Origin: Burkholderiales bacterium
GTDB lineage: Bacteria > Pseudomonadota > Gammaproteobacteria > Burkholderiales > JACQAP01
NCBI GenBank assembly: GCA_045810225.1
Contig: JBJMWI010000138.1
Span: forward strand, 23-64,022
Length of the DNA: 64,000 bases
Reading direction: 5' to 3'
Both the position numbers and the translations under genes were made by a program. The notes under the pieces are model-generated. The model had not been told where the DNA came from. It searched no databases and saw only the letters and a program-made list of their open reading frames with translations. Every line of letters begins with the position of its first letter. Position 1 is the stretch's first letter. Below, in pieces: positions 19,579 through 54,185 of this stretch.

Positions 19579-21945
19579 TTATTTTCGAGCTGCGTTCGCT
19601 TTGCCGGCCGTCGCGATCTTGGTCGCCGCGGGCCTCGCGTCGAACGCGGGCGCGGGAACAGCGCCATCTCGAGTCATGGTCTTGTAGAGCAGCATGACGA
19701 CTTCATTGGCTGGAATCGGCTTGCTGAAGTAAAAACCCTGGATCTGGTCGCAACCGCGCGACTGCAAAAATTCATACTGCTCCCTGGTTTCGACGCCTTC
19801 GGCCACTACTTCCAGTTGCAGACTGTGCGCCATCGCAATGATGGCCTCCACGATGGCTTCATCATCCTTGCTTTCTGGAATGCCTCGCACAAAAGACTGG
19901 TCGATCTTCACGCTGTCGAATGGAAAGCGCTTCAGGTAGGCCAGTGAGGAGTAGCCGGTTCCGAAGTCGTCCATCGTCAGGTGAAGGCCCAACGATTTGA
20001 GTTCGTTCAAGACCTTCTCCGCATGCTCCTGGTTGCTCATGACTGCGCTTTCGGTAATCTCGAGTTCCAGGGACTGCACCGACAATCCGGTGTTGCCGAG
20101 CGTATCGGCAATGAATGCGACCAAACCTTTGTCGGACATCTGTCGCGCGGAAATATTGATTGCGATGCGCAGTTGCGGCAAACCCGCCTTTTGCCACGCG
20201 CCGTTTTGGACGCACGCCGTCTGCGCTACCCAGCGACCTAGCGGGACGATGAGTCCAGTCTCTTCCGCAATCGAAATGAAGTCATTCGGGGGTACGAATC
20301 CCAAGTGCGGACTGCTCCAGCGGATCAGCGCTTCCAGTCCGACGATGCTTCCCGTCGCAAGGTCAACCTTGGGCTGGTAGTGCAGGACGAATTCCCGGTT
20401 ACTCAACGCACTGGTCAAATTGGATTCGAATTCCAGGCGCTGCACAGAATGGGTGTTGAGCTGCTCGGAATAAAACTGGAAGGTGCCTCTGCCCTCTTCC
20501 TTGGCTCGATACATTGCAATGTCGGCGTTCTTCAGCAGCGCCGGGGCATCGCGTCCGTCGGTCGGATAGGTACTGATGCCGATACTGGCTGCTGGACGAT
20601 ATTGCCGTCCGGCAAGGATCATCGGTTTGGCGAGCACTTCCAGAATCTTGCGGGCCACTGTCCCTGCCTGGTCTTCAGCGGTCAGGCCTTCAGTGAGGAC
20701 GGCAAACTCGTCTCCGCCGAAACGCGCCACGATATCCACTTTGCGCACACAAGCGGTCAGCCGCTCTGCCACTGCGCGCAATACCTCGTCACCGGCATCA
20801 TGACCGAGGCTGTCGTTGATGTTCTTGAAACGGTCCAGGTCAAAAAACAGGATCGATAGCATCTTGCCGCTGCGCGCTGCGCGCTGCAGCGCATTGTTTA
20901 AAGAATGGCGAAACAAACTGCGGTTTGGCAATCCTGTCAATTCGTCGTGATCAGCAAGGAACCGTGTGCGCTCTTCCTGCTCTTTGCGCTCGGTGATGTC
21001 CTGCAGGACGGCGCTCAATCTTCGCGCGCTTCCATCAGCCCGGGTTATGTAGCCGCGCGCGAATGCATGCGTGATTTTTTCGTCGCCGCGCAAAAGCCGA
21101 AACTCGTCGCACCAATGGCTGGCATCGGACTTTATCGCTGCGAGCAATTTTTCCTGTACCCGGGCACGATCGTCCGCATGAATGTGCTCGAACCACGCTG
21201 CCATGGTGGGCGCGGGATGTTCCTGACCGAAGACCTTTACATAATTTTCGCTTTGCCATAACGCATCGTTGGCCAAATTCCAGTCGATTAGCGCGTCGTT
21301 GGTTGCCTTGGAAGCCAAGCCATAGCGCTCGAGATCTTGCCACATCACATCCTGCGCGCGGTTACGACGGGTAACATCCCGAGCCATGACTGCGCGCGCT
21401 GGGCGCCGACGGAACTGCATTCGGAACGTGACCAATTCGGCCTGGAGCTCCGCGCCGGTTTTCGTTCGGTGCGTCCACGTGCCGACTTCACCAGAATTCG
21501 ATCCCAGGCCGTTCAGTGCTTCCATTACCAAGTCTTCATCTTGCGGCATGCCCAACTCGAAAAGCGTCATTTTGAGTAATTCTTTTTTCGTATACCCGTA
21601 GTCGCGCATCGCAGCGTCATTAACCTCGAGCAAACGGTTGCGACGCGTGTCGCAGATAAACGTGGGAATGGGGCTGCTTTGAAACAGCGTCTGGTATTGC
21701 AGTTCCCCCTCCTGGCGCCTTTCGCCACGGGAGGGCGTTGGGCCGTCCGCGGCCTGGACCTGCCGAGCATGCGATTTGCGAAACATTACGGGCAACAAAA
21801 AACCGACCAGCAGAACAGCGACCACGCTGGCCAGCATCACGCCGAGTGGGTGTTCAGCCAGCAGAAACCGAAGGCGCTCCAGAAAGGTATGGATGTGTCC
21901 CGGTACGCTGTGCAGTATCGGTTCAATTTCCCGCGGCGAAGCCAC
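19579..21945 (-). CDS. Membrane-anchored PAS-PAS-GGDEF-EAL c-di-GMP turnover protein
   Basis: 788 aa with an N-terminal TM helix. The GGDEF domain has RFGGDEFAVL. The EAL domain has EALIRW, DDFGTGYSSL and QGFYFSKP. Confidence 0.9.
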   Translation of the reverse strand: MASPREIEPILHSVPGHIHTFLERLRFLLAEHPLGVMLASVVAVLLVGFLLPVMFRKSHARQVQAADGPTPSRGERRQEGELQYQTLFQSSPIPTFICDTRRNRLLEVNDAAMRDYGYTKKELLKMTLFELGMPQDEDLVMEALNGLGSNSGEVGTWTHRTKTGAELQAELVTFRMQFRRRPARAVMARDVTRRNRAQDVMWQDLERYGLASKATNDALIDWNLANDALWQSENYVKVFGQEHPAPTMAAWFEHIHADDRARVQEKLLAAIKSDASHWCDEFRLLRGDEKITHAFARGYITRADGSARRLSAVLQDITERKEQEERTRFLADHDELTGLPNRSLFRHSLNNALQRAARSGKMLSILFFDLDRFKNINDSLGHDAGDEVLRAVAERLTACVRKVDIVARFGGDEFAVLTEGLTAEDQAGTVARKILEVLAKPMILAGRQYRPAASIGISTYPTDGRDAPALLKNADIAMYRAKEEGRGTFQFYSEQLNTHSVQRLEFESNLTSALSNREFVLHYQPKVDLATGSIVGLEALIRWSSPHLGFVPPNDFISIAEETGLIVPLGRWVAQTACVQNGAWQKAGLPQLRIAINISARQMSDKGLVAFIADTLGNTGLSVQSLELEITESAVMSNQEHAEKVLNELKSLGLHLTMDDFGTGYSSLAYLKRFPFDSVKIDQSFVRGIPESKDDEAIVEAIIAMAHSLQLEVVAEGVETREQYEFLQSRGCDQIQGFYFSKPIPANEVVMLLYKTMTRDGAVPAPAFDARPAATKIATAGKANAARK

Positions 21946-28258: not shown

Positions 28259-28899
28259 GGAGTGACCGGGCGGCAATCAGGATCCCGGGGCGGTCAATGC
28301 AAGCCGCGCATAATCGCACGGCACAGTCTGAGCAGCAGTCATGGTTGCTGTTCTGCGTTCCCGCGCACTTCCCATTCGTGTTTGTTTGCCGTGCTACGCA
28401 ACGCCGCCACTTCGTCGCGCATGACAGCCGCTTCCGCCTGAAGTCCAGCAAGAAAAAATCGGCCTGCAGGTTCAAACATTCAGCGCACAGCGAGTGTTCA
28501 ACGCGCTTCTCTGCACCGGACAAATGCGTGAAGCGATAGCGGTAAAACCGTGTTGTTGCGCAAATTTGACTTCCAAATGGTCCATTCGGCTACGAAACCA
28601 ACTGTCGTCAGTTGGCGTCAACGTTAAAGAGATTCGCAAAGTAATGGTTCCGCTCCCATGCCATGCGCATCTTGCCCGTCTTGCTCTGCAAGCAGCATCA
28701 CACAGCAGTGGGCGTGGTACCCAGGCCCGTACCTGGCACTTGAGGACATTATGAGAATAGCGCACCGCCCGCCGGGAAGCACCCCCGCTGTACACGAGCA
28801 GCTTGCTTCCTTCAGGTTCTCCGAATGCCCCTTGCTATTGCGCCTTGCTGAACCTCTTCGGCTTCAGTGCCTACGCCCCAAGGGCAGCGGGAGCGCCCA

Positions 28900-29880
28900 A
28901 TGAAAACTCAGAATTCCCCTTCTTTGGGGACCGGTGAATTTGTCGCGCATCGCCGGCGCTTCATGCAAATGGCAGCCGCATTGGCCTGCACGCCGCTGGT
29001 TAATCGAGTCCAGGCCAGCGGACTCACACGTACTGCGGCGGTCCCCGGCGGCTTTGCCGTGGTTCAGTTGGGCCCAGCCCGCATGGCCCCGGTGGTGTAT
29101 TTCAGTGGCGACAGGGTATTCGTCTCCGGAACGCAAACCGGTTGGTTCGCGATTGTCGGCATTCCGCTCGACGCGCAGCCGGGTCGCGCCCCTCCTCTAT
29201 CGATTCATGATGCAGCGGGCAAATCGCGAGTGGCTCATTTCACGATCGGCGTAAAGCGTTACGAGGCGGAATACCTGACGATGAAATCTGATTATGTCGA
29301 TCTGGAACCCGATGACCTTGCCCGATGCGAAGGCGAGCGCGCGCACTTGCAACGGGTGCTGCGAACCTATTCGGATGTATCGCCCTCGTCGTTGCTGCTG
29401 GTGCCGCCCTGTCAGGGAATGCGTACCAGCACATTCGGTGTGGTGCGCTTTTTCAACGGACAGGCGCGCGGCACCCACAACGGCATGGATATCGCTGCGC
29501 CAACCGGCAAGCCGGTATTCGCAGCAGCATCAGGACAAGTCGTCGACGTTGGCGATTATTTCTTTTCTGGACGAACTGTTCTTGTGGATCATGGCCGCGG
29601 GTTCATGACCCTGTACGCGCATCTCAGTGAAGTGAAGACGAGACCGCGCAAGCGCGTCGCGGCAGGCCAGAAGATCGGCAAAATCGGCATCACTGGGCGA
29701 GCCACCGGTCCGCATTTGCATTTCGGTGTGTACCTCAATGCCGCCGCCGTCGACCCGGCCTTGTTCCTGCTCTCCGATCCGCGCATGCAGCGCCTGTATT
29801 CGATGAGTACGCGCCAGGTGCCCGCCGCAGATGCGTTCGGCGGCGCGCCTGTGCGAGAAACCATTATCAAACGGCTGTAG
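28900..29880 (+). CDS. M23 family metallopeptidase (paralog 1)
   Basis: The ORF is trimmed to the ATG at 28900, preceded by GGGAG. It has a Tat-like HRRRFMQMAAALA. The M23 motifs HNGMDIAAPTGKPV and GPHLHFGV are present. Confidence 0.85.
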   Translation: MKTQNSPSLGTGEFVAHRRRFMQMAAALACTPLVNRVQASGLTRTAAVPGGFAVVQLGPARMAPVVYFSGDRVFVSGTQTGWFAIVGIPLDAQPGRAPPLSIHDAAGKSRVAHFTIGVKRYEAEYLTMKSDYVDLEPDDLARCEGERAHLQRVLRTYSDVSPSSLLLVPPCQGMRTSTFGVVRFFNGQARGTHNGMDIAAPTGKPVFAAASGQVVDVGDYFFSGRTVLVDHGRGFMTLYAHLSEVKTRPRKRVAAGQKIGKIGITGRATGPHLHFGVYLNAAAVDPALFLLSDPRMQRLYSMSTRQVPAADAFGGAPVRETIIKRL

Positions 29881-29957: not shown

Positions 29958-30821
29958 TTGCATCCCAATCAAGCCGAATTCGTGCTTCGCCGCCATTTTC
30001 TGCTAGTCATTACAGCTGCCTCCTCGCTATCGCTCTGGGCCGCCCATGTTCGGGCAGACCCGCTGCAGAAGGCCGTAGCCGTGCCGGGCGGAGTAGCCGT
30101 AGTCAAGATCGGCCCCGCTCCCAAGCTACCAACCGCCTGGCTCAACGGCAACAGGGTGCTTGTCACGGGCAATGAAAAGGAATGGTCCGCAGTGGTGGGC
30201 ATTGCGCTCGAAGCCCGCGCCGGCGAAAAGCTGGGACTCGCGGTGCAGGCAGTGGACGGAACAATTGCGACCCTACGCGTGGCAATCGGAACGAAGCAAT
30301 ATGCGACGCAACGCCTGACCGTCAAGCCTGGTCAAGTCGAACTTTCCCCTGAGGATCTGGCGCGCTATGAAACCGAGCGCACGCATCTTGGCGAAATCCG
30401 TAAAACCTTTACCGAGACAGCGCCCGATTCACTGCAACTGATGCAACCCTGCGAAGGCGAACGGTCGAACACATTCGGCCAGCGCCGGATTTTCAACGGT
30501 CAGTCACGCAATCCGCACAACGGAATGGATATACCGGCGCCGGATGGCTCACCGGTGGTGGCCGCCGGGGATGCAACAGTGATCGATGTCGGCAATTATT
30601 TTTTTTCCGGCAACACCGTAATCCTGGACCACGGCAGCGGCCTGCTTACACTCTATGCCCACTTAAGTGCGGTGGAAGTTGCTCCAGGCGATCGCGTCGG
30701 AACCGGCGCCCGTATCGGCCGTGTCGGCGCCACCGGCCGTGTCACCGGCCCTCACTTGCACTTTAGTGTTTTTCTGAATTCAGTTGCCGTGGATCCGGGG
30801 ATTTTTCTGGCCGACAAGTAG
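29958..30821 (+). CDS. M23 family metallopeptidase (paralog 2)
   Basis: 287 aa. The start is uncertain (TTG at 29958). The M23 motifs HNGMDIPAPDGSPV and GPHLHFSV are present, and the protein is colinear with paralog 1. Confidence 0.8.
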   Translation: MHPNQAEFVLRRHFLLVITAASSLSLWAAHVRADPLQKAVAVPGGVAVVKIGPAPKLPTAWLNGNRVLVTGNEKEWSAVVGIALEARAGEKLGLAVQAVDGTIATLRVAIGTKQYATQRLTVKPGQVELSPEDLARYETERTHLGEIRKTFTETAPDSLQLMQPCEGERSNTFGQRRIFNGQSRNPHNGMDIPAPDGSPVVAAGDATVIDVGNYFFSGNTVILDHGSGLLTLYAHLSAVEVAPGDRVGTGARIGRVGATGRVTGPHLHFSVFLNSVAVDPGIFLADK

Positions 30822-30895: not shown

Positions 30896-33800
30896 TCATA
30901 CCGTGACCCCATCCGGCGCGCGCACACGCTTGGTTTCAGTAATGCGTCTGCGTCCCCAGCTGCCCTGCCCGGTAGGTTCAATACCATTGGCCGCGAGCGT
31001 GCGGCGCAAGTCATCCAGAATGGCCTGACGACGGCGCAGCAGCGCGCCGGCGAAGCAACGCCAGAACACCCACCCGACCCGCTGCAAAGTCCGCTGGCGG
31101 CGCATATCTTCCACCCACTGCTGCGGTCCCTGATATTTGTCCCCATCGCACTCGACTGCCAGGCGCGTGTCGTCGCGGCCCTCCACTACCATATCGATCC
31201 GATAGGCGCCGACGGCGACCTGGGGGGTCACGTGGTAGCCCTCGCCGTTCAGCCAGTCGAACAATTCCCGTTCAATGCGCGACTCACAAAGCGTGCGCAG
31301 ATCGGTAATGCGCACCGGTTCTTCAGCAAACGGGCGCGCGAAGTGTGCAATCAGTCCTCGGCGCAGCCGGTCCGATTCGGAAAGATGGCTGAGTTCCACC
31401 GAGCGCACCAGAATCATGCGATCGCGCGCACGCGAGGCCGCGACATTGAAGCGCTGTGCGAACGTATCGCGGGACAATGCCGCGCCGATGTCGTTGGGCG
31501 CGCACACCATCGACAAGTACATGATGTCGCGCTCGCGTCCCTGGAATTGGCGCGCATCGCCGCACGTGACGGCGTGCCTGCGCAGCGTTTCGGGCGTCAG
31601 CACTTCGGTCAGACGCTGCCATATCTGCATTGCCTGTTCTTCGCCCAGCAGTGAAACGATGCCGATCGAGCGCGACTGCAACTTTGGGTCGGCCACCAGT
31701 GCCCTGACATCCTTGACGATGAATTCGACTTCGGCCCGATTGATGGCGCCATCGCGACTCGCGTCGCCGACCAGATAATCGAGCAGGGGCGGGTCCAGGC
31801 GTTCGGAAGCGTTGGCCAGGCGCAAGGGATAGAGTTCATGCTCGTAGAACTCGCGCTTGGAATATTCGATGATCGGCGCGACACAGCGAAAATGCTCCTT
31901 CAACATCACGCCGCTGTGCGCGAACACCACTTTGGCAAGATCGTAGATAGAACGCTCCGGCGACATCTGAGCGGCATACAGCGGAACCTGTTCCGCCAGG
32001 TAGCGGGCCATTAAGGTGTTTATGCGTTCCTCTTCAATGCCGACGGGCTGGGGCGCCACTTGCTTGTCGTCCCCCACGACAAGTATTTTTCGCGCCCGCA
32101 GCAGGACTGGTAATGCAGACAAATCGGATTGCGATGCTTCATCGATGATCACGAGATCGAAGCACCCGAGTTGGGCGGGCAAGGATTCCGAAACGCGGTG
32201 ATGCGGCATGATCCAGCAAGGCACCGCGTGCTGTGCCTGTGCAGATGCGGCTCGCGCGTCTCGCCGATAGCGAAAGGCGCGTTTGCCGGTGCCCTTGCCG
32301 ATGTGCTGAACGGCATTTAAATAGGCCTGCAGTGCGGCGCGCACGCCAGGGGTGGCGGTTTCGGTGAGCTTCAGCCAGCTGCGCTTGACGACCAGGTCTT
32401 CATAGGCACGCGCCAGATCGCGCTCTACTTCCACCCGCGCGGCGGAAAGCTTTTTCAGCTCGTCATGTGCATCGATGGCCTGCAGATGCGTGGCCAGGCG
32501 GCGCAAACGCCAGTCCCTCAGCATGGTGGCGGAAGATAGTTTTTCGTCGAAACCCGTGCCCATCTGGCGCAGTTTCTGCGCGAGCTTCGGCGCGCCCGAC
32601 GCTGCGATATTGGCGGTAACGACACTTACCACGGCGAGCGGCGCCGCCAGCGACCGCAATCGCGACAGTTCGGCGCCCAGCATATTCCAGGCTTCCAGCA
32701 GCGCTGATTCGTCGACCGCCGGATTGCCCAAGGTGCTGGCCAGGAATTCGCGCATGCGATCGACGATCTTTCCCTGTTTGCCCTCCAGCGCGCGATGCAG
32801 TCCATTGACCACCGTGGACACCTGGCTGAGCTGGGATTTGGTCAGGTGGTAGGCAAGCGTGAGTTCCACTTCCGACAGCACCGCGCTGTTCTGATGCACA
32901 GTCGCCGCGCGCGCCCATGCCGGAAACAATTCCATTGCCATACGCGACAATTCCGCTTCCTCGCGCGCCAGCAGCTTCAGTTTTTCATAATGCGCGAGTT
33001 GTGACTCCGCGGACAGCCTGCCCCGTGCATCTGCTGAAAGCACCGTCTGAAAGCCGATGTCCGGCGCGAGGGCATTCCAGCGCGCGGTCAGCGCACGTCT
33101 CGTCTTCTGCAACTCGATATGGGCAAGGACCGCCTTCCAATCCCCCATGTCTGCAGGCCGCGCGCCGTTGACGCGGACCAGCTCGAGCAGCTTTTTGGCT
33201 TCCGGGCGCCCCAACCCGATCAGCCCGAACGGCCGCCGTCCTTCCGCAAGATTACCGACTGCCTGGTGAAATTGCGGGTCCGTCTCCGCTGCTTCGGGCA
33301 CGATGACCGGCCGGGCGAGCAGCTGGGCGCGCTGCGCGGCCGCGCGGTCCATGTCGGCTGCTAGCAGGTCCAGCAGATCGAACACGCGCTTCGGCTCGCC
33401 GCTGCGCATCCGCGCGATGGCTTCTTCGCTCCATGGCAGTCGCAATGCCGTTAGTTCGTCGCGCAAGGATTTCACGCGCGCAATCTGTTCCGCCAATGCG
33501 CGCGCGCCCAGCAGGGATTCCGTGCCCGAGCCCGCCGGTACCGCCAATTCGCTGGAGCGCGCCTCGCGCGTCACTTTGGCATAGCGCTGCAGATCATCAT
33601 GCGCGCGTACCAATGCCAGTGCGTCCGGAAAATCAGCCGGCGCCGGCAAGGCATTGCCCGCATACTGGATATCTTCGCCCAGCTGGCGGCGCGCTTCGCG
33701 CAACCGCACGATGTCATCCGCGGAAAATCGCGCAATGTACTGCGGTCCCACGCCAAGGCCATCAGGAAGCCATTCGTACTGCCCTGCGCCCTGCATGACT

Positions 33801-35557
33801 TCACGAGCGGCATCCTGCGGGTCGATGGTTTCGCCACCAAGCTCGATACGCGAAACATTCAGCTTGGCCCATCGGCCCAAATCGGTATCGATGCGCTTCA
33901 GCTTGCCATGGAAACCATCGATCATTTCCACCAGACCATCCACCTGGCGCGTCGCCACCACCGTATCGAGGCTCTGCACTTCGCCCGCTATTTTTCGAAT
34001 CGATTGTTCGAGCTGGTCGACTCCGTCCTGATCGGCCGACAACAGCGGAAGCGCCAAGGGGCGCATTTCCGTCGGCAAGTGATCGCGTAACACGGCCAAA
34101 GCCGGGTCGCGCATGGACGTCACCAGCACGCGCCGCCCGTTGGCAAGCCAGTGACAAATGATGTTGGCGATCGTGTGCGTCTTGCCCGTGCCGGGTGGCC
34201 CCTGCACTACCACACCGTCAGAAATTTCCAGCATCTGCACAATGCGCGCCTGCTCATCGTTGAACGGCTTGGGAAAAAACAGGTCGTGCGCATCCAAGCT
34301 CTGTGCCACCCCGGCATGGTAGGCCGCTGTGACCCCGCGATACGAAGGCAGCGTGACAGGCGAGAGCCGAGTCGACGGTTCGGTCACCAAGGCTGCAACC
34401 GCTTCCGGCAGCGCGCTATCAGCGTCCAGCAGCGAGATTTGGTCGCGAAAGCGTTCCAGGTCCTGTATTGCGGCGACACTACTGCGTGGCCGTGCAAACA
34501 ATACCCACGTGTTGCTGATCTCCAAGCCGTTCGGCTCACCGGTTTGCTGTTGCGCCGACGCGAATGCGCGGCGCGCAATGTCAAGCAGCGGTTCAATGCT
34601 GCCATGTGCCAAAGGCGACAGGGTGTCACGCGTCGCCAGCAGAAATTGCTCTGTTTCTTTTTCCAGAGTCGCCCAGGCAGGCGCATCGGATTGAACAAAT
34701 CTGTCCAGTTCCACTCTTGGCGCGATATCGCGCGGCCGCAACTCCGCTGCCTGCGTCTCGGGATTGAAGCTGAGTTCCACCGTTTGCGTAACCAGCGGAT
34801 AACTGATTGCGGATCCGCCTATGCGGCCAGTGCATAACGCCATGCCCCACACCAGTTCGAGTTGGCCTTCCACCAGCGCACCGGCGAGTTCCTGATGCAC
34901 CGTGAACAGGCCGACGTAAAGATTTGCAAGGCGCCGGCGCTGCGACTCCGCGTCAGCCCAGGCACGCCATGATGATTGCAGATAGCGAGCGTACTGAGTT
35001 TCGACCTCGGAGCGGAGGGCATAGTCGTGCAGGCTCACGCGTGCGCGCCCATCTACCGACGGACCGGCCGCGTCCGGCGCAGCCGCTTCGCGATGGGTTC
35101 CTGCGCCAATCAACGCCGCTCCGTCGATTTCTGTGGCCAGTTGTGGGGCCGCGTTGACGCCGGCGCCGACATTCAACCATGGGGATAACCAAGGACTTTC
35201 TGCCTGCGGCGGGACTTGCGGCCCCGGCGGATGCGGCACGCACAACCAAATCTCATCGTCTGCATCCGCGCGACGACTATCGAGCAAGCCGGGAATTTCA
35301 TGGGCTTGATGCTCGTACAGCAGGAAGCTGTCGTGGCTCGCGATGTCGAACGCGACGCGAGCACGCGTGCGCAACGATTGCTGTGCGAAGTCTACGAGCG
35401 CGATGAGGCGCCGTTGCTGAATGGTCACGGCCGTTACTACGGTTCTTGTATTGTGGTTCTGGATTTCTGCGTGTGCGCTATCGTACTGCATCTGGAGTTG
35501 CAATCGATAGCGCCACGCGCACCGGCGTCGTGCACGCAGTCGCATTGAACAACTCAT
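30896..35557 (-). CDS. Giant SF1 (Upf1/DNA2-like) helicase fused to a C-terminal Vsr/DUF559-like PD-(D/E)xK nuclease, with a DUF4011-like N-terminus
   Basis: 1,553-aa ORF. The start is uncertain (35557, 35545 or 35491). The helicase motifs are Walker A GPPGTGKT (aa 453-460, nt 34178-34201), DEAS (aa 1139-1142, nt 32132-32143), VGDDKQ, HFRC, QGRERD and NVAASRARDRMILV. The C-terminal nuclease-like block is YRIDMVVEG...LAVECDGDKY...WVFWRC. Confidence 0.85.
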   Translation of the reverse strand: MSCSMRLRARRRCAWRYRLQLQMQYDSAHAEIQNHNTRTVVTAVTIQQRRLIALVDFAQQSLRTRARVAFDIASHDSFLLYEHQAHEIPGLLDSRRADADDEIWLCVPHPPGPQVPPQAESPWLSPWLNVGAGVNAAPQLATEIDGAALIGAGTHREAAAPDAAGPSVDGRARVSLHDYALRSEVETQYARYLQSSWRAWADAESQRRRLANLYVGLFTVHQELAGALVEGQLELVWGMALCTGRIGGSAISYPLVTQTVELSFNPETQAAELRPRDIAPRVELDRFVQSDAPAWATLEKETEQFLLATRDTLSPLAHGSIEPLLDIARRAFASAQQQTGEPNGLEISNTWVLFARPRSSVAAIQDLERFRDQISLLDADSALPEAVAALVTEPSTRLSPVTLPSYRGVTAAYHAGVAQSLDAHDLFFPKPFNDEQARIVQMLEISDGVVVQGPPGTGKTHTIANIICHWLANGRRVLVTSMRDPALAVLRDHLPTEMRPLALPLLSADQDGVDQLEQSIRKIAGEVQSLDTVVATRQVDGLVEMIDGFHGKLKRIDTDLGRWAKLNVSRIELGGETIDPQDAAREVMQGAGQYEWLPDGLGVGPQYIARFSADDIVRLREARRQLGEDIQYAGNALPAPADFPDALALVRAHDDLQRYAKVTREARSSELAVPAGSGTESLLGARALAEQIARVKSLRDELTALRLPWSEEAIARMRSGEPKRVFDLLDLLAADMDRAAAQRAQLLARPVIVPEAAETDPQFHQAVGNLAEGRRPFGLIGLGRPEAKKLLELVRVNGARPADMGDWKAVLAHIELQKTRRALTARWNALAPDIGFQTVLSADARGRLSAESQLAHYEKLKLLAREEAELSRMAMELFPAWARAATVHQNSAVLSEVELTLAYHLTKSQLSQVSTVVNGLHRALEGKQGKIVDRMREFLASTLGNPAVDESALLEAWNMLGAELSRLRSLAAPLAVVSVVTANIAASGAPKLAQKLRQMGTGFDEKLSSATMLRDWRLRRLATHLQAIDAHDELKKLSAARVEVERDLARAYEDLVVKRSWLKLTETATPGVRAALQAYLNAVQHIGKGTGKRAFRYRRDARAASAQAQHAVPCWIMPHHRVSESLPAQLGCFDLVIIDEASQSDLSALPVLLRARKILVVGDDKQVAPQPVGIEEERINTLMARYLAEQVPLYAAQMSPERSIYDLAKVVFAHSGVMLKEHFRCVAPIIEYSKREFYEHELYPLRLANASERLDPPLLDYLVGDASRDGAINRAEVEFIVKDVRALVADPKLQSRSIGIVSLLGEEQAMQIWQRLTEVLTPETLRRHAVTCGDARQFQGRERDIMYLSMVCAPNDIGAALSRDTFAQRFNVAASRARDRMILVRSVELSHLSESDRLRRGLIAHFARPFAEEPVRITDLRTLCESRIERELFDWLNGEGYHVTPQVAVGAYRIDMVVEGRDDTRLAVECDGDKYQGPQQWVEDMRRQRTLQRVGWVFWRCFAGALLRRRQAILDDLRRTLAANGIEPTGQGSWGRRRITETKRVRAPDGVTV

Positions 35558-35631: not shown

Positions 35632-35676
35632 AAAAAAAAATGGATGTGATCAAGCAAGGAGCTCAAAGCTCATCCA
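35632..35676 (-). terminator. Probable terminator downstream of lon
   Basis: On the minus strand, a weak hairpin (tggatg at 35641-35646 pairing with catcca at 35671-35676, with an inner GAGC/GCTC stem) is followed by a T9 run (35632-35640). It lies about 100 nt after the lon stop. Confidence 0.45.
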
Positions 35677-35776: not shown

Positions 35777-38203
35777 CTACGCCGCCTTTTCCTGCTGCGT
35801 AAATAATTGTTTCACTTCAACGCCCATGGCACAACGTACGGCGTCCTCGACATTCTCCAGCCATACGAACTGAAGTTTTTCCCGTGCGCTGGCCGGAACA
35901 TCTTCGAGATCTTTTTCGTTACGCTTCGGCAGCATCACGGTTTTGATGCCGGCACGCAGCGCGGCCAGTACTTTTTCCTTGACCCCACCGATGGGCAATA
36001 CCAACCCGCGCAACGAAATTTCGCCAGTCATGGCGACATCGGAGCGCACCGGCTTACCCGCAAGCAGCGACACCAGTGCCAGAAACATGGCTACGCCGGC
36101 ACTTGGACCATCTTTCGGCGTGGCACCCGCGGGAACGTGCACATGCAGATCCGACTTGTCCAGCGACTCTCCCAGGAACATCTTGGCCAGAGTCAGCGCG
36201 GCTTGGGCCGATTCTTTCATTACATCGCCGAGCTGCCCGGTCAAAATCAACTTGCCGGAACCCGGCACGCGGGTCGCCTCGATGAACAAAATGTCTCCAC
36301 CGACCGGTGTCCATGCCAGCCCGGTTGCCACGCCCGGCGTGGAAGTACGTTGCGCCACTTCGTTTTCGAAGCGGGGTGCCCCCAGGATGGCGTGCAAATC
36401 CGCTGCCTCAAGCGTTACGCTTTGCGCTTTACCCTCCGCGATTCTCATCGCTGCGGACCGCAACACCGAGCCGATTTCCCGCTCGAGATTGCGCACGCCC
36501 GCTTCACGCGTGTAATCGCGGATGATCGCGCGGATGGTGTCGTCGGTCAGCGTAACCTGTTCTGCTTTCAAGCCATTGGCCTCAAGCTGGCGCTTAACTA
36601 AATAGCGCCGCGCGATTTCCAGCTTTTCTTCGGCCGTATAGCCGGGCAGCTGGATAATCTCCATGCGATCGCGCAGCGGGCCGGGAATAGTATCCAGCAC
36701 ATTGGCGGTAGCGATGAACATGATCTTCGATAAATCGAAGTCCACGCCCAGATAGTTGTCGCGGAAGCGTGCGTTCTGCTCCGGATCGAGCACTTCCAGC
36801 AAGGCGCTGGCCGGATCGCCATGAAAGCCGCCTGCACCGAGCTTGTCGATTTCGTCCAGCATCAGCACGCCGCTACGCGATTCCGCGCGCCGCACCGCCT
36901 GGATGATGTTGCCAGGCAATGCACCGATATACGTGCGCCGATGGCCGCGAATCTCCGCTTCGTCATGCGTCCCACCCAAGGCCACGCGCTGAAATTTACG
37001 CCCTGTAGCACGCGCGATCGACTGCCCGAGCGAGGTCTTGCCCACGCCGGGGGGTCCGACAAAGCACAGAATCGGGCTTTTGCCTTCCGGATTGAGTTTT
37101 CTCACCGCGAGATATTCGAGTATGCGGCGCTTGATTTTCTCCAGTCCGTAGTGGTCCTCATCCAGGACTGCCCGGGCTTGCGCGATGTCGATTGGCGGCG
37201 TCTGCGTTATTTTCCACGGCAGTTCGCTTAGCCATTCCAGGTAAGTGCGCAGCATGGAATTTTCGCCACTGCCCTCGCCCATGCGCTCCAGGCGCTTGAG
37301 TTCTTTTTTGGCGTGCTTGAGCGTGTCTTCCGGCATACCGGCTTCATCGATCGCCTTCTTCAGGTCTTCGATTTCCGTGGCGCTCGCCTCATCTTCGCCC
37401 AGCTCTTTCTGGATCTGGCGCATTTGCTCGCGCAGCACGTGCTCGCGCTGGCGCTGATCGAATTCCTTTTTGGTCTTGTCGCCGATTTCCCGCGAAAGCT
37501 TCAGCACTTCAACGCGTTCGCTTAGCAGCGCAAGGATCTTGTCGAGGCGGCTTCTGAGGTTGAAATTCTCCAGCACGGACTGCTTTTCTTCGTTGCTGAT
37601 GTCCAGCAGGTTCGCCACCATGTCGGCAAGCAAACCGGGGGACGACATCCCCTGCACCACGGCAGACAAATCGTCCGGTACGTTCGGCAGCAGCTGGATG
37701 GCTTCAACCGCACGCGACTTCAGCTGAAGGAAACGCGCCTCTACTTCTGGCGTGCTATCCGCCGCCGTTTCGACAATCGCCACACGTGCGACCAGAAAAG
37801 GCCAACCTTCGAGGAACTCCAGCACGCGAAAGCGCGACTGTCCCTGTACCACCAGATGATGAGCGCCTTCATTCGTGAGATAGCGGACGACCTGGCCCAC
37901 GGTGCCAACCCAATGCAGATCGTCAGGCCCCAGTTCGTTCTTCTGCGGATCACGCTGCAACAGAAAGCCGATTGGTTGTTCGTTGCGTACGGCTTCCTGC
38001 GCCGCTGCGATGGAAGGCGCCCGCCCGACGGTCACCGGAGACATGATGCCCGGGAACAGCACGGCATTGCGCAACGGAACGATGACCAGCGCGTCTTCCG
38101 GTAGCGGTTTCAGCGTCGGATTGCTTTTGCTTGGGGCAGAGGCCCTGCCAGCCCGACCCTCCTCAGGCGAAAGCAATTCCTGCATCGCAGACGAAAAGTT
38201 CAT
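35777..38203 (-). CDS. lon: ATP-dependent protease Lon (LonA)
   Basis: The ORF is trimmed to MNFSSAMQELL; its ATG overlaps the hsp20 stop (ATGA at 38200-38203). It has the N-domain segment LVIVPLRNAVLFPGIMSPVTVGR, Walker A GPPGVGKTS and the protease Ser site PKDGPSAGVAM. Confidence 0.95.
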   Translation of the reverse strand: MNFSSAMQELLSPEEGRAGRASAPSKSNPTLKPLPEDALVIVPLRNAVLFPGIMSPVTVGRAPSIAAAQEAVRNEQPIGFLLQRDPQKNELGPDDLHWVGTVGQVVRYLTNEGAHHLVVQGQSRFRVLEFLEGWPFLVARVAIVETAADSTPEVEARFLQLKSRAVEAIQLLPNVPDDLSAVVQGMSSPGLLADMVANLLDISNEEKQSVLENFNLRSRLDKILALLSERVEVLKLSREIGDKTKKEFDQRQREHVLREQMRQIQKELGEDEASATEIEDLKKAIDEAGMPEDTLKHAKKELKRLERMGEGSGENSMLRTYLEWLSELPWKITQTPPIDIAQARAVLDEDHYGLEKIKRRILEYLAVRKLNPEGKSPILCFVGPPGVGKTSLGQSIARATGRKFQRVALGGTHDEAEIRGHRRTYIGALPGNIIQAVRRAESRSGVLMLDEIDKLGAGGFHGDPASALLEVLDPEQNARFRDNYLGVDFDLSKIMFIATANVLDTIPGPLRDRMEIIQLPGYTAEEKLEIARRYLVKRQLEANGLKAEQVTLTDDTIRAIIRDYTREAGVRNLEREIGSVLRSAAMRIAEGKAQSVTLEAADLHAILGAPRFENEVAQRTSTPGVATGLAWTPVGGDILFIEATRVPGSGKLILTGQLGDVMKESAQAALTLAKMFLGESLDKSDLHVHVPAGATPKDGPSAGVAMFLALVSLLAGKPVRSDVAMTGEISLRGLVLPIGGVKEKVLAALRAGIKTVMLPKRNEKDLEDVPASAREKLQFVWLENVEDAVRCAMGVEVKQLFTQQEKAA

Positions 38204-38616
38204 GTTGACTCCTTCTTGCTGAAAGTTAGCGTGAGACACCCGTCCTGCAGATTTCTTCCGGTCAGGGTGAGTGCTTGCGTGGGCAAGCCGATCCGGCGCG
38301 CAAAGCGCCCGTACGGAATTTCCAGTGCATGGACCCGCGCGGGCAGCGCAGCGGATGATTCAAGCGGAAACGAGCGCCGTGCTGAAATCGTGATGGCACC
38401 CGGCTCCATTTCGATGAGCACGGAGTCCGCAGTGGCGCCCGGCAAAGCCACATGCACCAGAACGGTCTCCGACATTTCGATAATGTCCACCGGCGGCTCC
38501 CAAGCGGGGGCCCGCGCCATGTCAGGACGGCAGAATTGGCGGTGCAGCCGGTCGGCCTGCTCCAGAAGCGAAAGCGCTTCGCTCCACATAAGGTTTGATA
38601 GATCGCGCGATGTCAT
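38200..38616 (-). CDS. Hsp20/alpha-crystallin family small heat-shock protein
   Basis: 138 aa from the ATG at 38616, with GGAG 6 nt upstream. The alpha-crystallin core is PPVDIIEMSETVLVHVALPGATADSVLIEMEPGAITISARR. Confidence 0.8.
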   Translation of the reverse strand: MTSRDLSNLMWSEALSLLEQADRLHRQFCRPDMARAPAWEPPVDIIEMSETVLVHVALPGATADSVLIEMEPGAITISARRSFPLESSAALPARVHALEIPYGRFARRIGLPTQALTLTGRNLQDGCLTLTFSKKEST

Positions 38617-40317: not shown

Positions 40318-41085
40318 TTAGTTGGTGTCGCTGCTTCCGTGGCAACTCTTGTAGGCTTTGCCGCTGCCGCATGGACACGGGTCATTACGCCCCACATTGC
40401 GGCCATTTCGCCCAGTCGGCGCATGAAAGATGCGCTTGTCCAACCAGTAGCTGTACACCGTCATGACTGAATTGCCCATGGACCCGGCTGCGCTGCTGCG
40501 CAGCCGGCGCTCTTCGTCCGGTGTAATGGCCTCGCCGGCTTCCTCAGCGGCTTCGCGCATGCGCCCGGACAAGAGCATGAACGGCAGCAACATTTCTTCC
40601 ACTTGCTCGGGCTCACCGTGCTCATACCAGTCAGCTTCGGACAGGAGCACGCCTTCGAGGTAGCCCTCGCACCAGGTCGCCAGATCGTTTTCGCCTTCCT
40701 GGTCGGGAAATACGTACAGCGTCACGCCGCCGCTATCTAGTTCCTGCACGATTTGCCCATAAAACCGCATCACCAGGCCGAGAACTTCCTCGGCCTGTTC
40801 TTTGGTCTCATAGTCCGGAGCGTCTCCCAGCGCCACGGGCAGCCAGCGGCTGGGCGGAATGAGGTCGGGGGCGCTCGCCACGGCGCAGAGCATGCCCTGC
40901 AACATGTCGAGCGGCATAGCTTCTTCATGAAAAGTCTGGGAAATGAGCAGCCGCTCCAGTCGATCGAGCTCCGTCGTAGTGAGCGGGCGTTCGGAATGCA
41001 GAAATGGCGTTATGGGACGAGACACGGTCAAGCTGCTTTTGGCTGGTTTCGAAAGCAAGGATCGGAGTGTTCGCGCTCCTATCAT
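40318..41085 (-). CDS. yecA: YecA/UPF0149 family protein with a C-terminal SEC-C metal-binding motif
   Basis: 255 aa. The C-terminus [18 protein letters not shown] is a SEC-C motif, preceded by a UPF0149-like helical domain. Confidence 0.75.
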
Positions 41086-41147
41086 CCTCCAATATTGGGT
41101 CGAAGGCGCGGGGGTTTCGCCCGGCCGACAACCAGGAGAGCATTATC

Positions 41148-42239
41148 ATGGGAAACATGATCACGAGCGAAGCAATGGGCGGGACGGCATATGCCACTGA
41201 TGCGCAGCGCTGGGCAGCTGTAGTAAGCCGCGACCGCCAAGCCGATGGGGTGTTCTATTACTCCGTCAGAACGACTGGCGTGTATTGCCGTCCGTCCTGC
41301 GCATCCCGGCCGGCACTGCGCCGGAATGTGGATTTCCATGCCAGCCGCGAAGACGCCGAGCGTGCCGGTTTCCGGGCCTGCAAGCGCTGCAAACCCAATG
41401 AAGCCCCCGCCGCCCAGCAATACGCCAAAGGCGTGACCAGCGCATGCCGTCTGATCGAATCCGCTGCGGAGTTGCCTGACCTCGCCACATTGGCCGCAGC
41501 GGCAGGCATGAGCAGGTTTCATTTCCATCGTATTTTCAAACAGATTACCGGCATGACGCCGAAGGCCTACGCGCTGGCGCGGCGTGGCCAGCGCATACGC
41601 GAGGAATTGCCCAAGCGCGCTTCGGTTACCCAGGCCATCTACGATGCTGGCTTCAATTCCAATGGCCGCTTCTACGCAAAGTCCAGCGCAACGCTGGGTA
41701 TGCCGGCGGCGCGGTTCCGTAAGGGCGGAGCCGGCGAATCGATTCGTTTCGCACTGGGCGAATGTTTTCTCGGGTCCATTCTGGTCGCGGCAACGGACAA
41801 AGGCATCTGTACCATTTCGCTCGGGCAGGATCCGGAACTATTATTGCGCGAATTGCAGGACCGCTTTGCAAAAGCGCATTTGATCGGCGGCGACCATGAG
41901 TTTGAGCAGTTGATTGCAAAAGTGGTCGCTTTCGTGGAAGCACCCGGACTAGGTCTGGATCTGCCGCTCGACGTGCGCGGCACGGTGTTCCAGCAGCGCG
42001 TGTGGCAAGCATTATGCGAGATCCCTGCTGGCGCGACTGCCAGTTATGCGCAAGTCGCAGAGCGTATCGGCATGCCGCGGTCTATTCGTGCCGTGGCGCA
42101 AGCGTGCGCATCCAACACCATCGCTGTCGCCATCCCTTGCCACCGCGTGATCCGCAATGACGGCAACTTGTCCGGCTACCGCTGGGGAGTAGAGCGAAAA
42201 CGCAAGCTGCTGAATCGCGAAACTCAAGTGCAGACATGA
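41148..42239 (+). CDS. ada: Bifunctional Ada: methylphosphotriester methyltransferase/AraC-type regulator plus O6-methylguanine-DNA methyltransferase
   Basis: The ORF is trimmed to the ATG at 41148, with AGGAGA 8 nt upstream. It has the N-Ada zinc site YCRPSCASR, the AraC HTH SRFHFHRIFKQITGMTPKAY and the MGMT active site IPCHRVI. Confidence 0.9.
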   Translation: MGNMITSEAMGGTAYATDAQRWAAVVSRDRQADGVFYYSVRTTGVYCRPSCASRPALRRNVDFHASREDAERAGFRACKRCKPNEAPAAQQYAKGVTSACRLIESAAELPDLATLAAAAGMSRFHFHRIFKQITGMTPKAYALARRGQRIREELPKRASVTQAIYDAGFNSNGRFYAKSSATLGMPAARFRKGGAGESIRFALGECFLGSILVAATDKGICTISLGQDPELLLRELQDRFAKAHLIGGDHEFEQLIAKVVAFVEAPGLGLDLPLDVRGTVFQQRVWQALCEIPAGATASYAQVAERIGMPRSIRAVAQACASNTIAVAIPCHRVIRNDGNLSGYRWGVERKRKLLNRETQVQT

Positions 42240-42997
42240 ATACTGCAACTCGACCCAAAATCGCCCTGGAACAAGCAGCGCAGTCGGTCGCGCGGGTGGT
42301 AAAGCGGCTGGCTGACTTCGATTGGGATCGCATACTCGACAACATCGACCAAAGCGGGTACGCGGTGCTGGAATCATTACTGACGCCACAAGAATGCGGG
42401 CTGCTCGCGGCACTTTACGACGAGGACTTGGCGTTTCGGAGCAAGATTGTCATGGCCCGCCACGGTTTTGGCCGGGGCCAGTACAAGTACTTTGCATATC
42501 CTTTGCCCGGCGTAGTGGCGGATTTGCGCCGTGCGCTCTATCCGCGGCTTTACGGTCTCGCCAATCGCTGGAATGAGCGCATGGGCGTAGCGGTTCGTTA
42601 TCCAGAAAAACATGAAGCCTTTCTCGACCGTTGTCACCGCGCCGGTCAAGTCCGTCCGACACCCCTGTTGCTGCAATACCGCGAGGGGGATTTCAATTGC
42701 CTGCATCAGGATCTCTACGGCGAGCATGTCTTTCCGTTGCAAACAGCCATCCTGTTATCCCGGCCGCAGCAGGATTTCACGGGTGGTGAATTTATCCTCA
42801 GTGAACAGCGGCCGCGCATGCAATCACGGGTTACCGTCGTACCGCTTGAGCAGGGCAGTGGCGTAATTTTCGCGGTGAACAACCGCCCGGTACAGGGGCA
42901 ACGCGGCAGCTATCGGGTCAAGTTGCGTCACGGCGTCAGCCCGGTCCGCTCCGGATTACGGCATACGCTCGGCATCATCTTTCATGATTCCGGGTAA
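42236..42997 (+). CDS. 2OG-Fe(II) oxygenase, ada-linked (probable nucleic-acid alkylation-repair dioxygenase family)
   Basis: 253 aa. Its ATG overlaps the ada stop (ATGA at 42236-42239). It has an HxD in CLHQDLYGEH and a distal His in LRHGVSPV. It resembles the ada-associated oxygenase family (Pfam Oxygenase-NA type, from memory). Confidence 0.75.
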   Translation: MNTATRPKIALEQAAQSVARVVKRLADFDWDRILDNIDQSGYAVLESLLTPQECGLLAALYDEDLAFRSKIVMARHGFGRGQYKYFAYPLPGVVADLRRALYPRLYGLANRWNERMGVAVRYPEKHEAFLDRCHRAGQVRPTPLLLQYREGDFNCLHQDLYGEHVFPLQTAILLSRPQQDFTGGEFILSEQRPRMQSRVTVVPLEQGSGVIFAVNNRPVQGQRGSYRVKLRHGVSPVRSGLRHTLGIIFHDSG

Positions 42998-54051: not shown

Positions 54052-54060
54052 CCAGTACTT

Positions 54061-54185
54061 CCGTGACAGTCGTGACGGCGTGACGGTCGTGTCTCTTAAA
54101 GAAACCATGCTTGGCCTTTAGAATACGTATCGGTGTCTTGTACTTCCGCATTTACGGCAGTCACGATCGTCACGTCGTCACGGCC
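54061..54185. repeat. CGTGAC-array inverted-repeat element (125 bp)
   Basis: The left array has GTGAC at 54063, 54072 and 54080, with GTGTC at 54089. The right array has GTCAC at 54160, 54169 and 54177, giving mirror 9/8-bp spacing. The interior is similar to that of the 18115-18250 element (cggtgtc...cttcc...tttacg). Confidence 0.65.

Follow-up and report, generated by a model that had tools for sequence, protein, structure and literature searches.

A core-like helicase-nuclease gene of a Burkholderiales lineage belongs to an unnamed sister family of Hhe, ProA, and PDC-S37 and may encode a domesticated defence enzyme

Here, we analysed a large gene at the centre of a 64,000-nucleotide stretch of a Burkholderiales genome (contig JBJMWI010000138.1; the whole stretch is referred to as the window). 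Judged by its profile matches, the encoded helicase-nuclease fusion is a member of an unnamed sister family of Hhe, ProA, and PDC-S37 that comprises ~1,400 clusters at 50% identity. The longest open reading frame (ORF) lies at 30896..35557 on the minus strand (1,553 codons plus the stop), as an earlier reading made from the sequence alone (the sequence-only reading) had claimed, although the start codon is probably an internal GTG at 35428. Residue numbers are those of the 1,553-amino-acid (aa) ORF, and subtraction of 43 gives the numbering of the probable protein. The general kind of protein, a single chain that joins a helicase to a Vsr-type nuclease, is already known; what distinguishes this family is an N-terminal domain of its own, a GreA-type tail that is frequent in other members, and the core-like habit of the gene here. 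Within this lineage, the gene is core-like and vertically inherited. We ranked a domesticated defence role as the most likely function, with a housekeeping role as a serious rival: we see about an even chance that the protein is a domesticated Hhe-like anti-phage or anti-plasmid enzyme that has become a fixed chromosomal gene in this lineage.

We consider the family distinct because the protein falls far below the curated cut-offs of the ProA and Hhe models and because the N termini are not shared. The NCBIfam model for ProA (NF058533, "anti-phage protein ProA") matched aa 417-1522 at an E value of 3e-54, covering profile positions 635-1704 with 184 bits against a curated cut-off of 1500, and the NCBIfam model for Hhe (NF042953) matched aa 1102-1519 at 4e-38 with 130.5 bits against a cut-off of 2000. 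A BLASTP comparison with a genuine Hhe protein gave 26% identity and was confined to the last ~410 aa and the P-loop. Among the PADLOC models, which were used without a curated cut-off, the best match was PDC-S37 (1.5e-49, 166.8 bits, aa 885-1523, model positions 696-1340 of 1550), followed by MkoC/MkoA of Mokosh (7e-34 to 9e-23) and then Hhe (PDLC02194). We considered that the protein might be a true Hhe or ProA orthologue that the curated models miss, given that its parts follow the same order as in Hhe (an N-terminal region of ~400 to 440 aa, Walker A, a giant insertion, motifs II-VI, and a Vsr-type nuclease) and that ProA aligns across helicase, insertion, and nuclease. This is highly improbable. 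The scores reach 184 of 1500 bits for ProA and 130 of 2000 bits for Hhe, the Hhe match is limited to the C-terminal stretch noted above, the N-terminal domains are not detectably related, and 634 N-terminal and ~200 C-terminal positions of the ProA profile are left unmatched. The plasmid-borne members of the same family fail both cut-offs too, with ProA scores of 216 to 278 bits. Membership proper in Hhe or ProA was thus ruled out by the curated cut-offs together with the unmatched N termini.

The likeness to Hhe is nevertheless broad. Both are giant polypeptides that stand alone, with ~400 to 440 aa ahead of Walker A, a Upf1-like superfamily 1 (SF1) motor whose motifs I and II are separated by a very long insertion, and a C-terminal Vsr/DUF559-type nuclease with an ExDG motif, in which the glutamate that Hhe requires is equivalent to the invariant E1469 of the window family. 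They differ in that Hhe has an N-terminal DUF4011 domain, which was not found in the window protein, and in that the insertion of the window protein is ~230 aa shorter and the protein has no DUF3320 tail; Hhe also resides on plasmids or in defence islands, whereas the window copy is syntenic and core-like. ProA is the best-scoring named family and aligns across helicase, helical insertion, and nuclease, but with profile positions 1-634 and 1705-1903 unmatched, so its N- and C-terminal modules differ. For PDC-S37, the match spans the late insertion, motifs II-VI, and the nuclease, yet it is confined to the C-terminal 40% of the window protein and leaves the N-terminal 45% of the model unmatched. 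The resemblance to MkoA and MkoC is limited to the RecA2 and motif II-VI region in the helicase half (aa ~1127-1398); Mokosh proteins differ in their N-terminal and effector domains and, in type I, come with a partner gene, and no such partner lies beside the window gene. Hhe has been described as a single-gene "helicase + Vsr endonuclease" system with activity against lambda, T3, T7, and PhiV-1, and the nuclease mutation E1731A abolishes its anti-phage activity (10.1101/2022.06.16.496414). A gene by which phage counter hhe has likewise been reported (10.1101/2024.04.14.589459). The sequence-only reading was therefore wrong to hold that this architecture has no demonstrated function. Full-text literature searches for the origin of the name ProA returned only proA proline genes and the word "proactive," with no describing paper, and PDC-S37, itself a candidate defence system, was not mentioned in the papers searched. 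A preprint on a "helicase-nuclease immune system" was set aside because it concerns Druantia DruE/DruH, which are unrelated.

The C-terminal nuclease is the most constrained part of the protein. It occupies 30995..31273 on the minus strand (aa 1429-1521) and is a predicted Vsr-type PD-(D/E)xK endonuclease of the MTES_1575/DUF559 type, with the conserved block YRIDMVVEG (1452-1460), AVECDGDKY (1467-1475), and WVFWRC (1496-1501). Pfam MTES_1575 matched at 4.5e-25 (88 bits against a gathering score of 38.2, profile positions 2-96 of 96), whereas DUF559 matched weakly (1.5e-4, 22 bits against 20.6), and a weak Protein Data Bank (PDB) match was found to the DUF559 structure 3hrl. Each of the 29 diverse members sampled from the family also matches MTES_1575. 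The RxD...ExDG layout proposed by the sequence-only reading was thus borne out by the MTES_1575 match and by intact acidic residues. The predicted catalytic residues are D1455, E1459, E1469, and D1471, accompanied by the conserved Q1488 and R1493. In an alignment of 134 sequences, D1455 was kept in 133, E1459 in 130, Q1488 in 132, and both E1469 and D1471 in 134, so the two residues singled out for mutation by the sequence-only reading are invariant across the family and no loss of catalytic acids was seen; R1493, W1496, W1499, and R1500 were likewise invariant. D1455, E1469, and D1471 were all kept in 31/31 diverse representatives. Compared with the 90%-identical orthologue, the ratio of nonsynonymous to synonymous divergence (dN/dS) of the nuclease was 0.015, the lowest in the protein. 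The domain shares the D...ExDG...Q..R...GW layout of the Vsr, DUF559, and MTES_1575 endonucleases, families that are covered by Anantharaman et al. (2013, PMC3710099), but here it forms part of a helicase fusion instead of standing free, and it carries a glutamine in place of one histidine.

That position is residue 1476 (codon 31130-31132), five residues after D1471, which we take to be the equivalent of Vsr His69 by our own alignment with the Vsr sequence. It is Gln in the window protein and in all 18 listed homologues of at least 73% identity, His in 26 of the 31 diverse representatives, and H, Q, E, A, or G across the Burkholderiales clade. One could propose from this substitution that the gene is a decaying, nuclease-attenuated relic of a former defence gene that has lost cleavage through the His-to-Gln change and persists as an ATPase or translocase with another role. 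The consistency of Gln among the close homologues, set against His in most diverse representatives, is what speaks for such a relic. We consider it improbable, because a dN/dS of 0.015 makes a nuclease-dead protein unlikely; in addition, the acidic residues are invariant, the ORF is intact in all relatives, and Gln or Glu could still position the water or metal. Since the rest of the nuclease domain is extremely constrained, we read Gln1476 as tolerated variation rather than inactivation, as far as residue conservation can indicate.

By its motifs and its predicted fold, the motor is a Upf1-like SF1B helicase. The first part of RecA1 (34043..34282, minus strand, aa 426-505) holds a Q-like motif FFPKPFNDEQ, Walker A, and motif Ia, with the Walker A GPPGTGKT at nucleotides (nt) 34178-34201 on the minus strand (aa 453-460). 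The remainder of RecA1 and RecA2 (31358..32242, minus strand, aa 1106-1400) hold motifs II-VI: DEAS (motif II, 1139-1142), VGDDKQ (III, 1161-1166), HFRC (IV, 1222-1225), QGRERD (V, 1339-1344), and NVAASRARDR (VI, 1371-1380; NVAASRARDRMILV at 1371-1384). All helicase motifs quoted in the sequence-only reading, NVAASRARDRMILV included, were found at exactly the residues it gave. Pfam placed AAA_11, AAA_30, and AAA_19 around the P-loop and AAA_12 over aa 1213-1384. Across the family, all of the helicase motifs are invariant or nearly so; K459, D1139, E1140, and S1142 are invariant in the 134 sequences, which span 35-90% identity, and active-site residues are likewise conserved in 31 representatives at 34-50% identity; dN/dS for the helicase core was 0.04 against the 90% orthologue. 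A Foldseek search with the predicted model of aa 420-1553 returned Senataxin/Sen1 at the top, followed by IGHMBP2, Upf1, Dna2, nsp13, Aquarius, and ZNFX1 (E values 2e-9 to 3e-5, probability 1.00), in agreement with a phmmer sequence search of the PDB that returned Upf1, IGHMBP2, Sen1, and Dna2 (1e-7 to 2e-4). In Upf1-like SF1B enzymes, ATP hydrolysis drives 5'-to-3' movement along single-stranded DNA or RNA. By analogy with these enzymes, the window protein would move 5' to 3' on single-stranded nucleic acid and incise DNA.

The motor is split by a helical insertion in RecA1 (32243..34042, minus strand, aa ~506-1105). In the predicted model, this ~600-aa region is all-alpha, with ~15 helices of 15 to 37 residues by DSSP, and it replaces the 1B/1C accessory domains of Upf1-like helicases. 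Its predicted local distance difference test (pLDDT) values were mostly 80-95, in a model with a pLDDT of 80.5. Pfam found nothing in the ~600 aa beyond a chance Myb match, and Foldseek returned weak coiled-coil-type matches to Rad50 and MukB. Conserved residues are spread along its entire length (dN/dS 0.063). The protein thus resembles the eukaryotic Upf1-like SF1B helicases and Dna2 in the fold and motifs of its two RecA domains (Foldseek E values 2e-9 to 7e-7) and in having accessory domains inserted in RecA1, and it resembles Dna2 in carrying a nuclease and an SF1B helicase on a single chain. Identity to the Upf1-like helicases is ~20% over ~360 columns, however, and these have a 1B barrel and a 1C stalk where the window protein has the ~600-aa helical domain; the window protein also has no CH or RNA-binding accessory domains. 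Dna2, in turn, has an N-terminal Fe-S PD-(D/E)xK nuclease, whereas the nuclease of the window protein is C-terminal and of the Vsr type.

The N-terminal domain sets the family apart. It spans ~380 aa (aa 44-425; 34283..35428, minus strand), and we regard it as the hallmark of a distinct family in view of its profile matches. A search of 1.84 billion cluster representatives with the N-terminal profile returned 1,388 matches at E values of at most 1e-3, including 255 at 1e-30 or below, and among the proteins listed with a length of 1,400 aa or more, the match lay at or near the N terminus. The AlphaFold2 model, built from an 82-sequence alignment, had a pLDDT of 86 and a predicted template modelling score (pTM) of 0.75 and showed an alpha/beta fold with long beta-hairpins and one 43-residue helix. 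With dN/dS at 0.143 against the 90% orthologue, this domain is the fastest-evolving part of the protein. The fold-and-search check that the sequence-only reading had proposed for this region yielded a confident fold without a PDB neighbour: no PDB entry matched at an E value of 0.001 or below (best 0.09, TM ~0.1), and BFVD gave one marginal match, to the N terminus of a phage-contig "AAA domain protein" (E value 2e-3, TM 0.2).

The sequence-only reading had also recognised a DUF4011-like segment in this region, and this was upheld only at the level of a motif. Pfam returned no match to the N-terminal 448 aa at E values up to 10, DUF4011 included, and 0/29 diverse family members matched DUF4011 or DUF3320 in Pfam (E value of at most 0.001 for DUF4011). 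When two N-terminal profiles were aligned by hhalign with the N terminus of a genuine Hhe protein from a Klebsiella pneumoniae plasmid (annotated by PGAP), the probabilities were 0.2% and 0.08%. The top insignificant hhalign alignment pairs LVWGxGxxxW...YPLxTxxVE (YPLVTQTVE in the window protein) with LYLALGFLEW...APLFTIPV of Hhe. The DUF4011 assignment therefore has no statistical support from Pfam, the 29 members, or hhalign, and the likeness to the Hhe N terminus that remains is one of motif and not of demonstrated homology.

We hypothesized that the protein acts as a single-polypeptide nucleic-acid surveillance enzyme that needs no conserved partner. In this mechanism, the N-terminal domain and the helical arm would detect, or control entry to, a nucleic-acid structure that is aberrant or foreign, for example an intermediate of phage or plasmid replication or recombination. 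ATP-driven translocation would then carry the C-terminal nuclease to duplex DNA, where it would nick or cut, and the invader would be restricted; these steps are modelled on the presumed action of Hhe. We favour this defence reading because the named relatives are all defence or candidate defence proteins, because members occur in BREX, restriction-modification, and plasmid contexts, and because the family has a patchy distribution and swappable tails. A fast-evolving N-terminal domain, exchangeable C-terminal modules, and a scattered phylogeny would, by analogy, be typical of immune proteins. More than 4,400 database proteins match the helicase-nuclease at E values of 1e-10 or below, all 29 sampled representatives carry AAA_11, AAA_12, and MTES_1575, and the family is defined at a length of ~1,500 to 1,900 aa. 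No conserved partner gene was found across 14 annotated contexts, in keeping with the stand-alone SF1 helicase-nuclease fusion described by the sequence-only reading. Identities across taxa (47-48% in Nitrospira, 45% in Pseudomonas, 38-39% in Novosphingobium, 36% for a Streptomyces plasmid, and 35% in Thioalkalivibrio) are similar in unrelated phyla and classes, the Alpha-, Beta-, and Gammaproteobacteria among them, suggesting horizontal transfer, and the family is found on plasmids and chromids. Phage genomes held no full-length relative, with four weak helicase-domain matches only.

Several of the more distant members do lie among defence genes, and each of those described here aligned with the window protein from the N-terminal domain onward. 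On Acinetobacter pittii plasmids (35.5% identity), the gene lies 64 nt downstream of brxL of a BREX operon, and 38 Acinetobacter plasmids carry a match. On a Sphingobium conjugative plasmid (40%), its neighbours include a DNA methyltransferase, a BPTD_3080 restriction endonuclease, and an SbcCD-like pair, and on Variovorax plasmids (38%), it adjoins a GIY-YIG nuclease with AbiE nearby. A metagenomic member of 1767 aa and 52% identity sits in an island that also encodes MjaI restriction-modification, GmrSD, SLFN_AlbA_2, an MmeI-like enzyme, SMC-like ATPases, and REase-ARP, and another member adjoins a terminase large subunit gene. We also pooled the two nearest called ORFs on each side of 35 chromosomal loci (130 proteins). 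Among these 130 neighbours, PADLOC matches at E values of 1e-10 or below comprised one each of a Type IIG restriction-modification/DrmMI-like protein, LmuA, a DRT-type reverse transcriptase, Avs1a, and PbeA, and a few others; the commonest Pfam families were PAS, response regulator, aldo-keto reductase, aminotransferase, and MFS. The expectation that homologues sit in defence islands thus held for several members at 35-52% identity and failed for the window copy and its close relatives.

A number of observations weigh against the defence reading. The defence association of the wider family is suggestive and anecdotal, and at 63% identity or less the neighbourhoods vary by lineage and consist mostly of metabolic and regulatory genes. 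The shortfall against the curated ProA and Hhe cut-offs is ~ten-fold, the nuclease has Gln at the position equivalent to His69 of Vsr, and our literature search returned no demonstrated function or experiment for this family, so that this claim of the sequence-only reading, wrong for the architecture, holds for this specific family in the searchable literature. At the locus itself, the 64-kb window contains no defence genes, all of its genes being of the housekeeping kind; it has no tRNA genes, and no mobile-element genes were present among the ORFs scanned. The GC content at third codon positions was 0.71 for the gene and 0.63-0.74 for its neighbours, which marks the gene as native. Two M23 peptidase genes (28867-29880 and 29958-30821, plus strand) converge on its 3' end, and upstream the gene is preceded by lon in the same orientation (35777-38239, minus strand), an arrangement that the sequence-only reading had given correctly. 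The order ...ada-UPF0149-GTP cyclohydrolase I-lon-helicase-M23-M23-...-NMT1 is kept in all relatives of 65-90% identity with flanking sequence (loci L001, L002, L005, L006, L007, L021, L028, and L040/L067). Synonymous divergence (dS) to the closest relative was 0.72 for the gene and 0.72-0.90 for the flanks, and to a 75% relative it was 1.36 and 1.27-3.5, respectively; because these values are equal for gene and flanks, the gene has been co-inherited with them. When metagenomes were searched with the M23 gene as anchor, 5/5 informative contigs (M23b of at least 66% identity; L079, L081, L083, L084, and L087) carried the adjoining helicase, and no empty site or presence-absence polymorphism was observed among these five. 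The sequence-only reading had proposed a check for defence islands and had named a conserved core neighbourhood as grounds for doubt; no such island surrounds the window copy, and the neighbourhood is largely conserved and core-like in this lineage.

Several of these observations feed the rival that we take most seriously, namely, that the protein is a housekeeping enzyme of genome maintenance or transcription and a bacterial functional analogue of Senataxin/Sen1 or Dna2. Such an enzyme would act where transcription complexes stall, where R-loops form, or where transcription and replication collide, moving 5' to 3' along nascent RNA or along single-stranded DNA that has been displaced, and its Vsr-type nuclease would incise DNA to start repair or resolution. 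We regard this role as possible and less probable than domesticated defence. It is consistent with the strict synteny, the vertical inheritance, and strong purifying selection at the pace of lon, GTP cyclohydrolase I, and other neighbours, with the core and non-mobile context, with a conserved upstream block that implies dedicated regulation, with Senataxin as the top structural neighbour of the motor, and with a DNA-repair pair, ada/Oxygenase-NA, that the conserved block carries at a distance of 5 kb. It also fits that Vsr is a repair nuclease. On the other side, a patchy family with members on plasmids beside BREX and restriction-modification genes would be unusual for a housekeeping repair factor; all of the relatives that bear a name are defence proteins, an association with repair genes was not conserved across lineages, and defence genes can likewise become fixed. 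A large DUF4011 helicase gene built along similar lines belongs to the core genome of Pseudomonas aeruginosa and is present in every isolate (PMC10250203), which also speaks for a housekeeping role. Of the two functions that the sequence-only reading had offered, defence thus gains from the named relatives and from the distant members near BREX and restriction-modification genes and loses from the core-like window copy, and repair remains a live rival.

The tails of other family members bear on the same question. In the window protein, the region after the nuclease is a short tail (aa 1522-1553), and the protein stops right after a conserved TE.R.V motif. A GreA_GreB C-terminal domain (Pfam PF01272, best E value 4e-12) was present in 12/29 diverse representatives, and an iterated local search raised the count of GreA/GreB-type tails to 23 of 60 full-length family representatives (including P0168, P0169, P0173-P0176, P0185, P0188, P0193, P0199, P0200, P0203, P0205, and P0208). 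Other members end in a DUF3320-like winged-helix or a small "...GWW(I/K)K" module. In Gre factors, this C-terminal domain docks the protein on RNA polymerase. The tails, together with Senataxin as the top neighbour, make action on transcription complexes or R-loops possible, by indirect evidence in the case of the tail-less window copy, and their presence in 23 of 60 representatives counts in favour of the housekeeping role; the GreA-type tail is missing, however, from the window protein (30896-30994) and from every one of the 119 close homologues that reach 1,400 aa. A broader version would have the family as a whole be primarily a bacterial Senataxin/Dna2-like transcription-coupled helicase-nuclease and not primarily immune, with many members docking on RNA polymerase through the GreA/GreB-type domain, the tail-less window form clearing R-loops and stalled complexes or resolving transcription-replication conflicts as a housekeeping factor that moves 5' to 3' and incises DNA, the plasmid and defence-island members arising as secondary recruitments, and the N-terminal domain, as modelled, serving as a new substrate-recognition fold. 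We view this broader version as rather unlikely and keep domesticated defence as the preferred reading.

Anti-phage activity is confirmed for single-protein helicase-nuclease systems such as Hhe, and the sister family described here, at ~1,400 clusters, escapes the curated models for ProA and Hhe in NCBIfam and for DUF4011 in Pfam. Its N-terminal domain has no structural relative, and the GreA-type tail in more than one-third of family clusters suggests RNA polymerase as an interaction partner. The family occurs both in defence contexts (BREX, restriction-modification, and plasmids) and in a strictly vertical, core-like context, which makes it a useful case of immune nucleases becoming domesticated or of housekeeping helicase-nucleases being recruited to immunity. 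Cultivable carriers include Ralstonia pseudosolanacearum, which has a megaplasmid copy, Variovorax, Acinetobacter pittii, Azohydromonas aeria, and Pseudomonas sp. NW5.

The gene is real and not a chance ORF, given the more than 4,400 homologues and a whole-gene dN/dS of 0.076 against the 90%-identical orthologue. The top 120 homologues, one fragment excepted, are 50-90% identical over 87-98% of the length, and no entry identical to the exact window protein was present in the protein collection searched. Its start codon is most likely the GTG at 35428 (V44 of the ORF), to judge from the alignments, which gives a probable coding sequence (CDS) at 30896..35428 on the minus strand and a protein of 1510 aa. 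We place the start there because the ORF N terminus is gapped in homologues, the upstream stretch carries indels, the GTG is conserved, and the length agrees with that of a homologue. In the 134-sequence family alignment, aa 1-43 are almost wholly gapped (gap fraction 0.96 at aa 1-25 and 0.68 at aa 26-50), and the homologue consensus start MxxQxRRL pairs with V44-T-I-Q-Q-R-R-L. Nine relatives have 1-nt frame-breaking indels upstream of GTG 35428, so this stretch is taken as noncoding, and AACGGCC-GTG-AC is invariant in the same nine. The 90%-identical homologue P0001 is 1510 aa long, equal to the GTG-started CDS.

The spacer between lon and the helicase CDS is 348 nt, and a conserved noncoding leader or promoter block (35429..35511, minus strand) abuts the GTG start. 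Its layout is TCGATTGC...GTACGATAGCG.CACACGCA...ACAAGAACCGT-N3-AACGGCC, within which the runs TCGATTGC, GTACGAT.GCG, CACACGCA, and ACAAGAACCGT-N3-AACGGCC are invariant; these runs are conserved in nine relatives with proteins 66-90% identical (L002, L003, L006, L007, L021, L028, L079, L081, and L084). The block probably represents a promoter/operator or protein-binding element, or a translation-control element. A riboswitch or structured leader was considered and found to be unsupported: RNAalifold detected no compensatory pair changes in the leader, and Rfam gave zero matches in the leader or the whole window. The leader has no obvious Shine-Dalgarno sequence, inspection by eye showed neither a LexA-type CTGT-N8-ACAG box nor a correctly spaced sigma-54 element, and sigma-70 and terminator scans around the gene returned nothing above shuffled expectation. 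The sequence-only reading had placed a T9 terminator after lon; the T9 run is present (35632..35640, minus strand), but it is preceded by only a weak 5-bp hairpin ~18 nt upstream and was not called by the terminator scan. The claim that the gene is monocistronic fared better, in that the leader block and the convergent downstream gene support a transcription unit of its own, and some read-through from lon may occur. A small CCGT-N4-ACGG hairpin adjoins the GTG start codon. The lon-helicase spacers of L081, L006, and L021 hold short G-rich tandem or repetitive extragenic palindromic (REP)-like repeats (e.g., GCGAGGTGCGAGGTGCGAGGTACGAGG...) and their complements, which are absent from the window's own spacer.

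Among the remaining features of the window are genes for a met-zincin, GGDEF and EAL proteins, an acyl-CoA synthetase, cytochrome bd, a glutathione transferase, a chromate transporter, an NMT1-like binding protein, GTP cyclohydrolase I, a UPF0149/SEC-C protein, ada and Oxygenase-NA, a GTPase, TRAP and ABC transporters, and a UvrD/Rep helicase. The last is a UvrD/Rep-family SF1A protein of 727 aa (51925-54108, minus strand), 16 kb away, and is an ordinary, unrelated repair or replication helicase. A recurrent upstream neighbour in several loci at 55% identity matched the window ORF at 19579-21945; it was rejected as a functional partner, being a paralogous PAS-GGDEF-EAL protein. The two M23 genes are tandem paralogues, each with a Peptidase_M23_N domain; the pair is kept in L002, L028, L040/L067, and L078, and several others show a single copy at the site. 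The gap between the helicase stop and the M23 gene holds additional DNA in two relatives: in the 75% relative L067 (14740-18082), a 69-aa SAM-domain gene and a 1020-aa adenylate/guanylate cyclase-AAA_16-TPR (STAND-like) gene, and in L081 (6438-8129), ~1.7 kb of extra DNA. In L068, a 57% relative on a 467-kb contig, the helicase directly adjoins the NMT1-like gene and M23 is ~10 kb off, so the neighbourhood is partly kept and rearranged. The ada gene (Ada_Zn_binding, AraC helix-turn-helix, and methyltransferase domains) and Oxygenase-NA form a pair at 41004-42997 on the plus strand, and relatives keep this pair together with the lon-helicase block. Because of an overlap of ~80 nt between the ada ORF and the divergent UPF0149/SEC-C gene (40318-41085, minus strand), the true ada start is probably further downstream.

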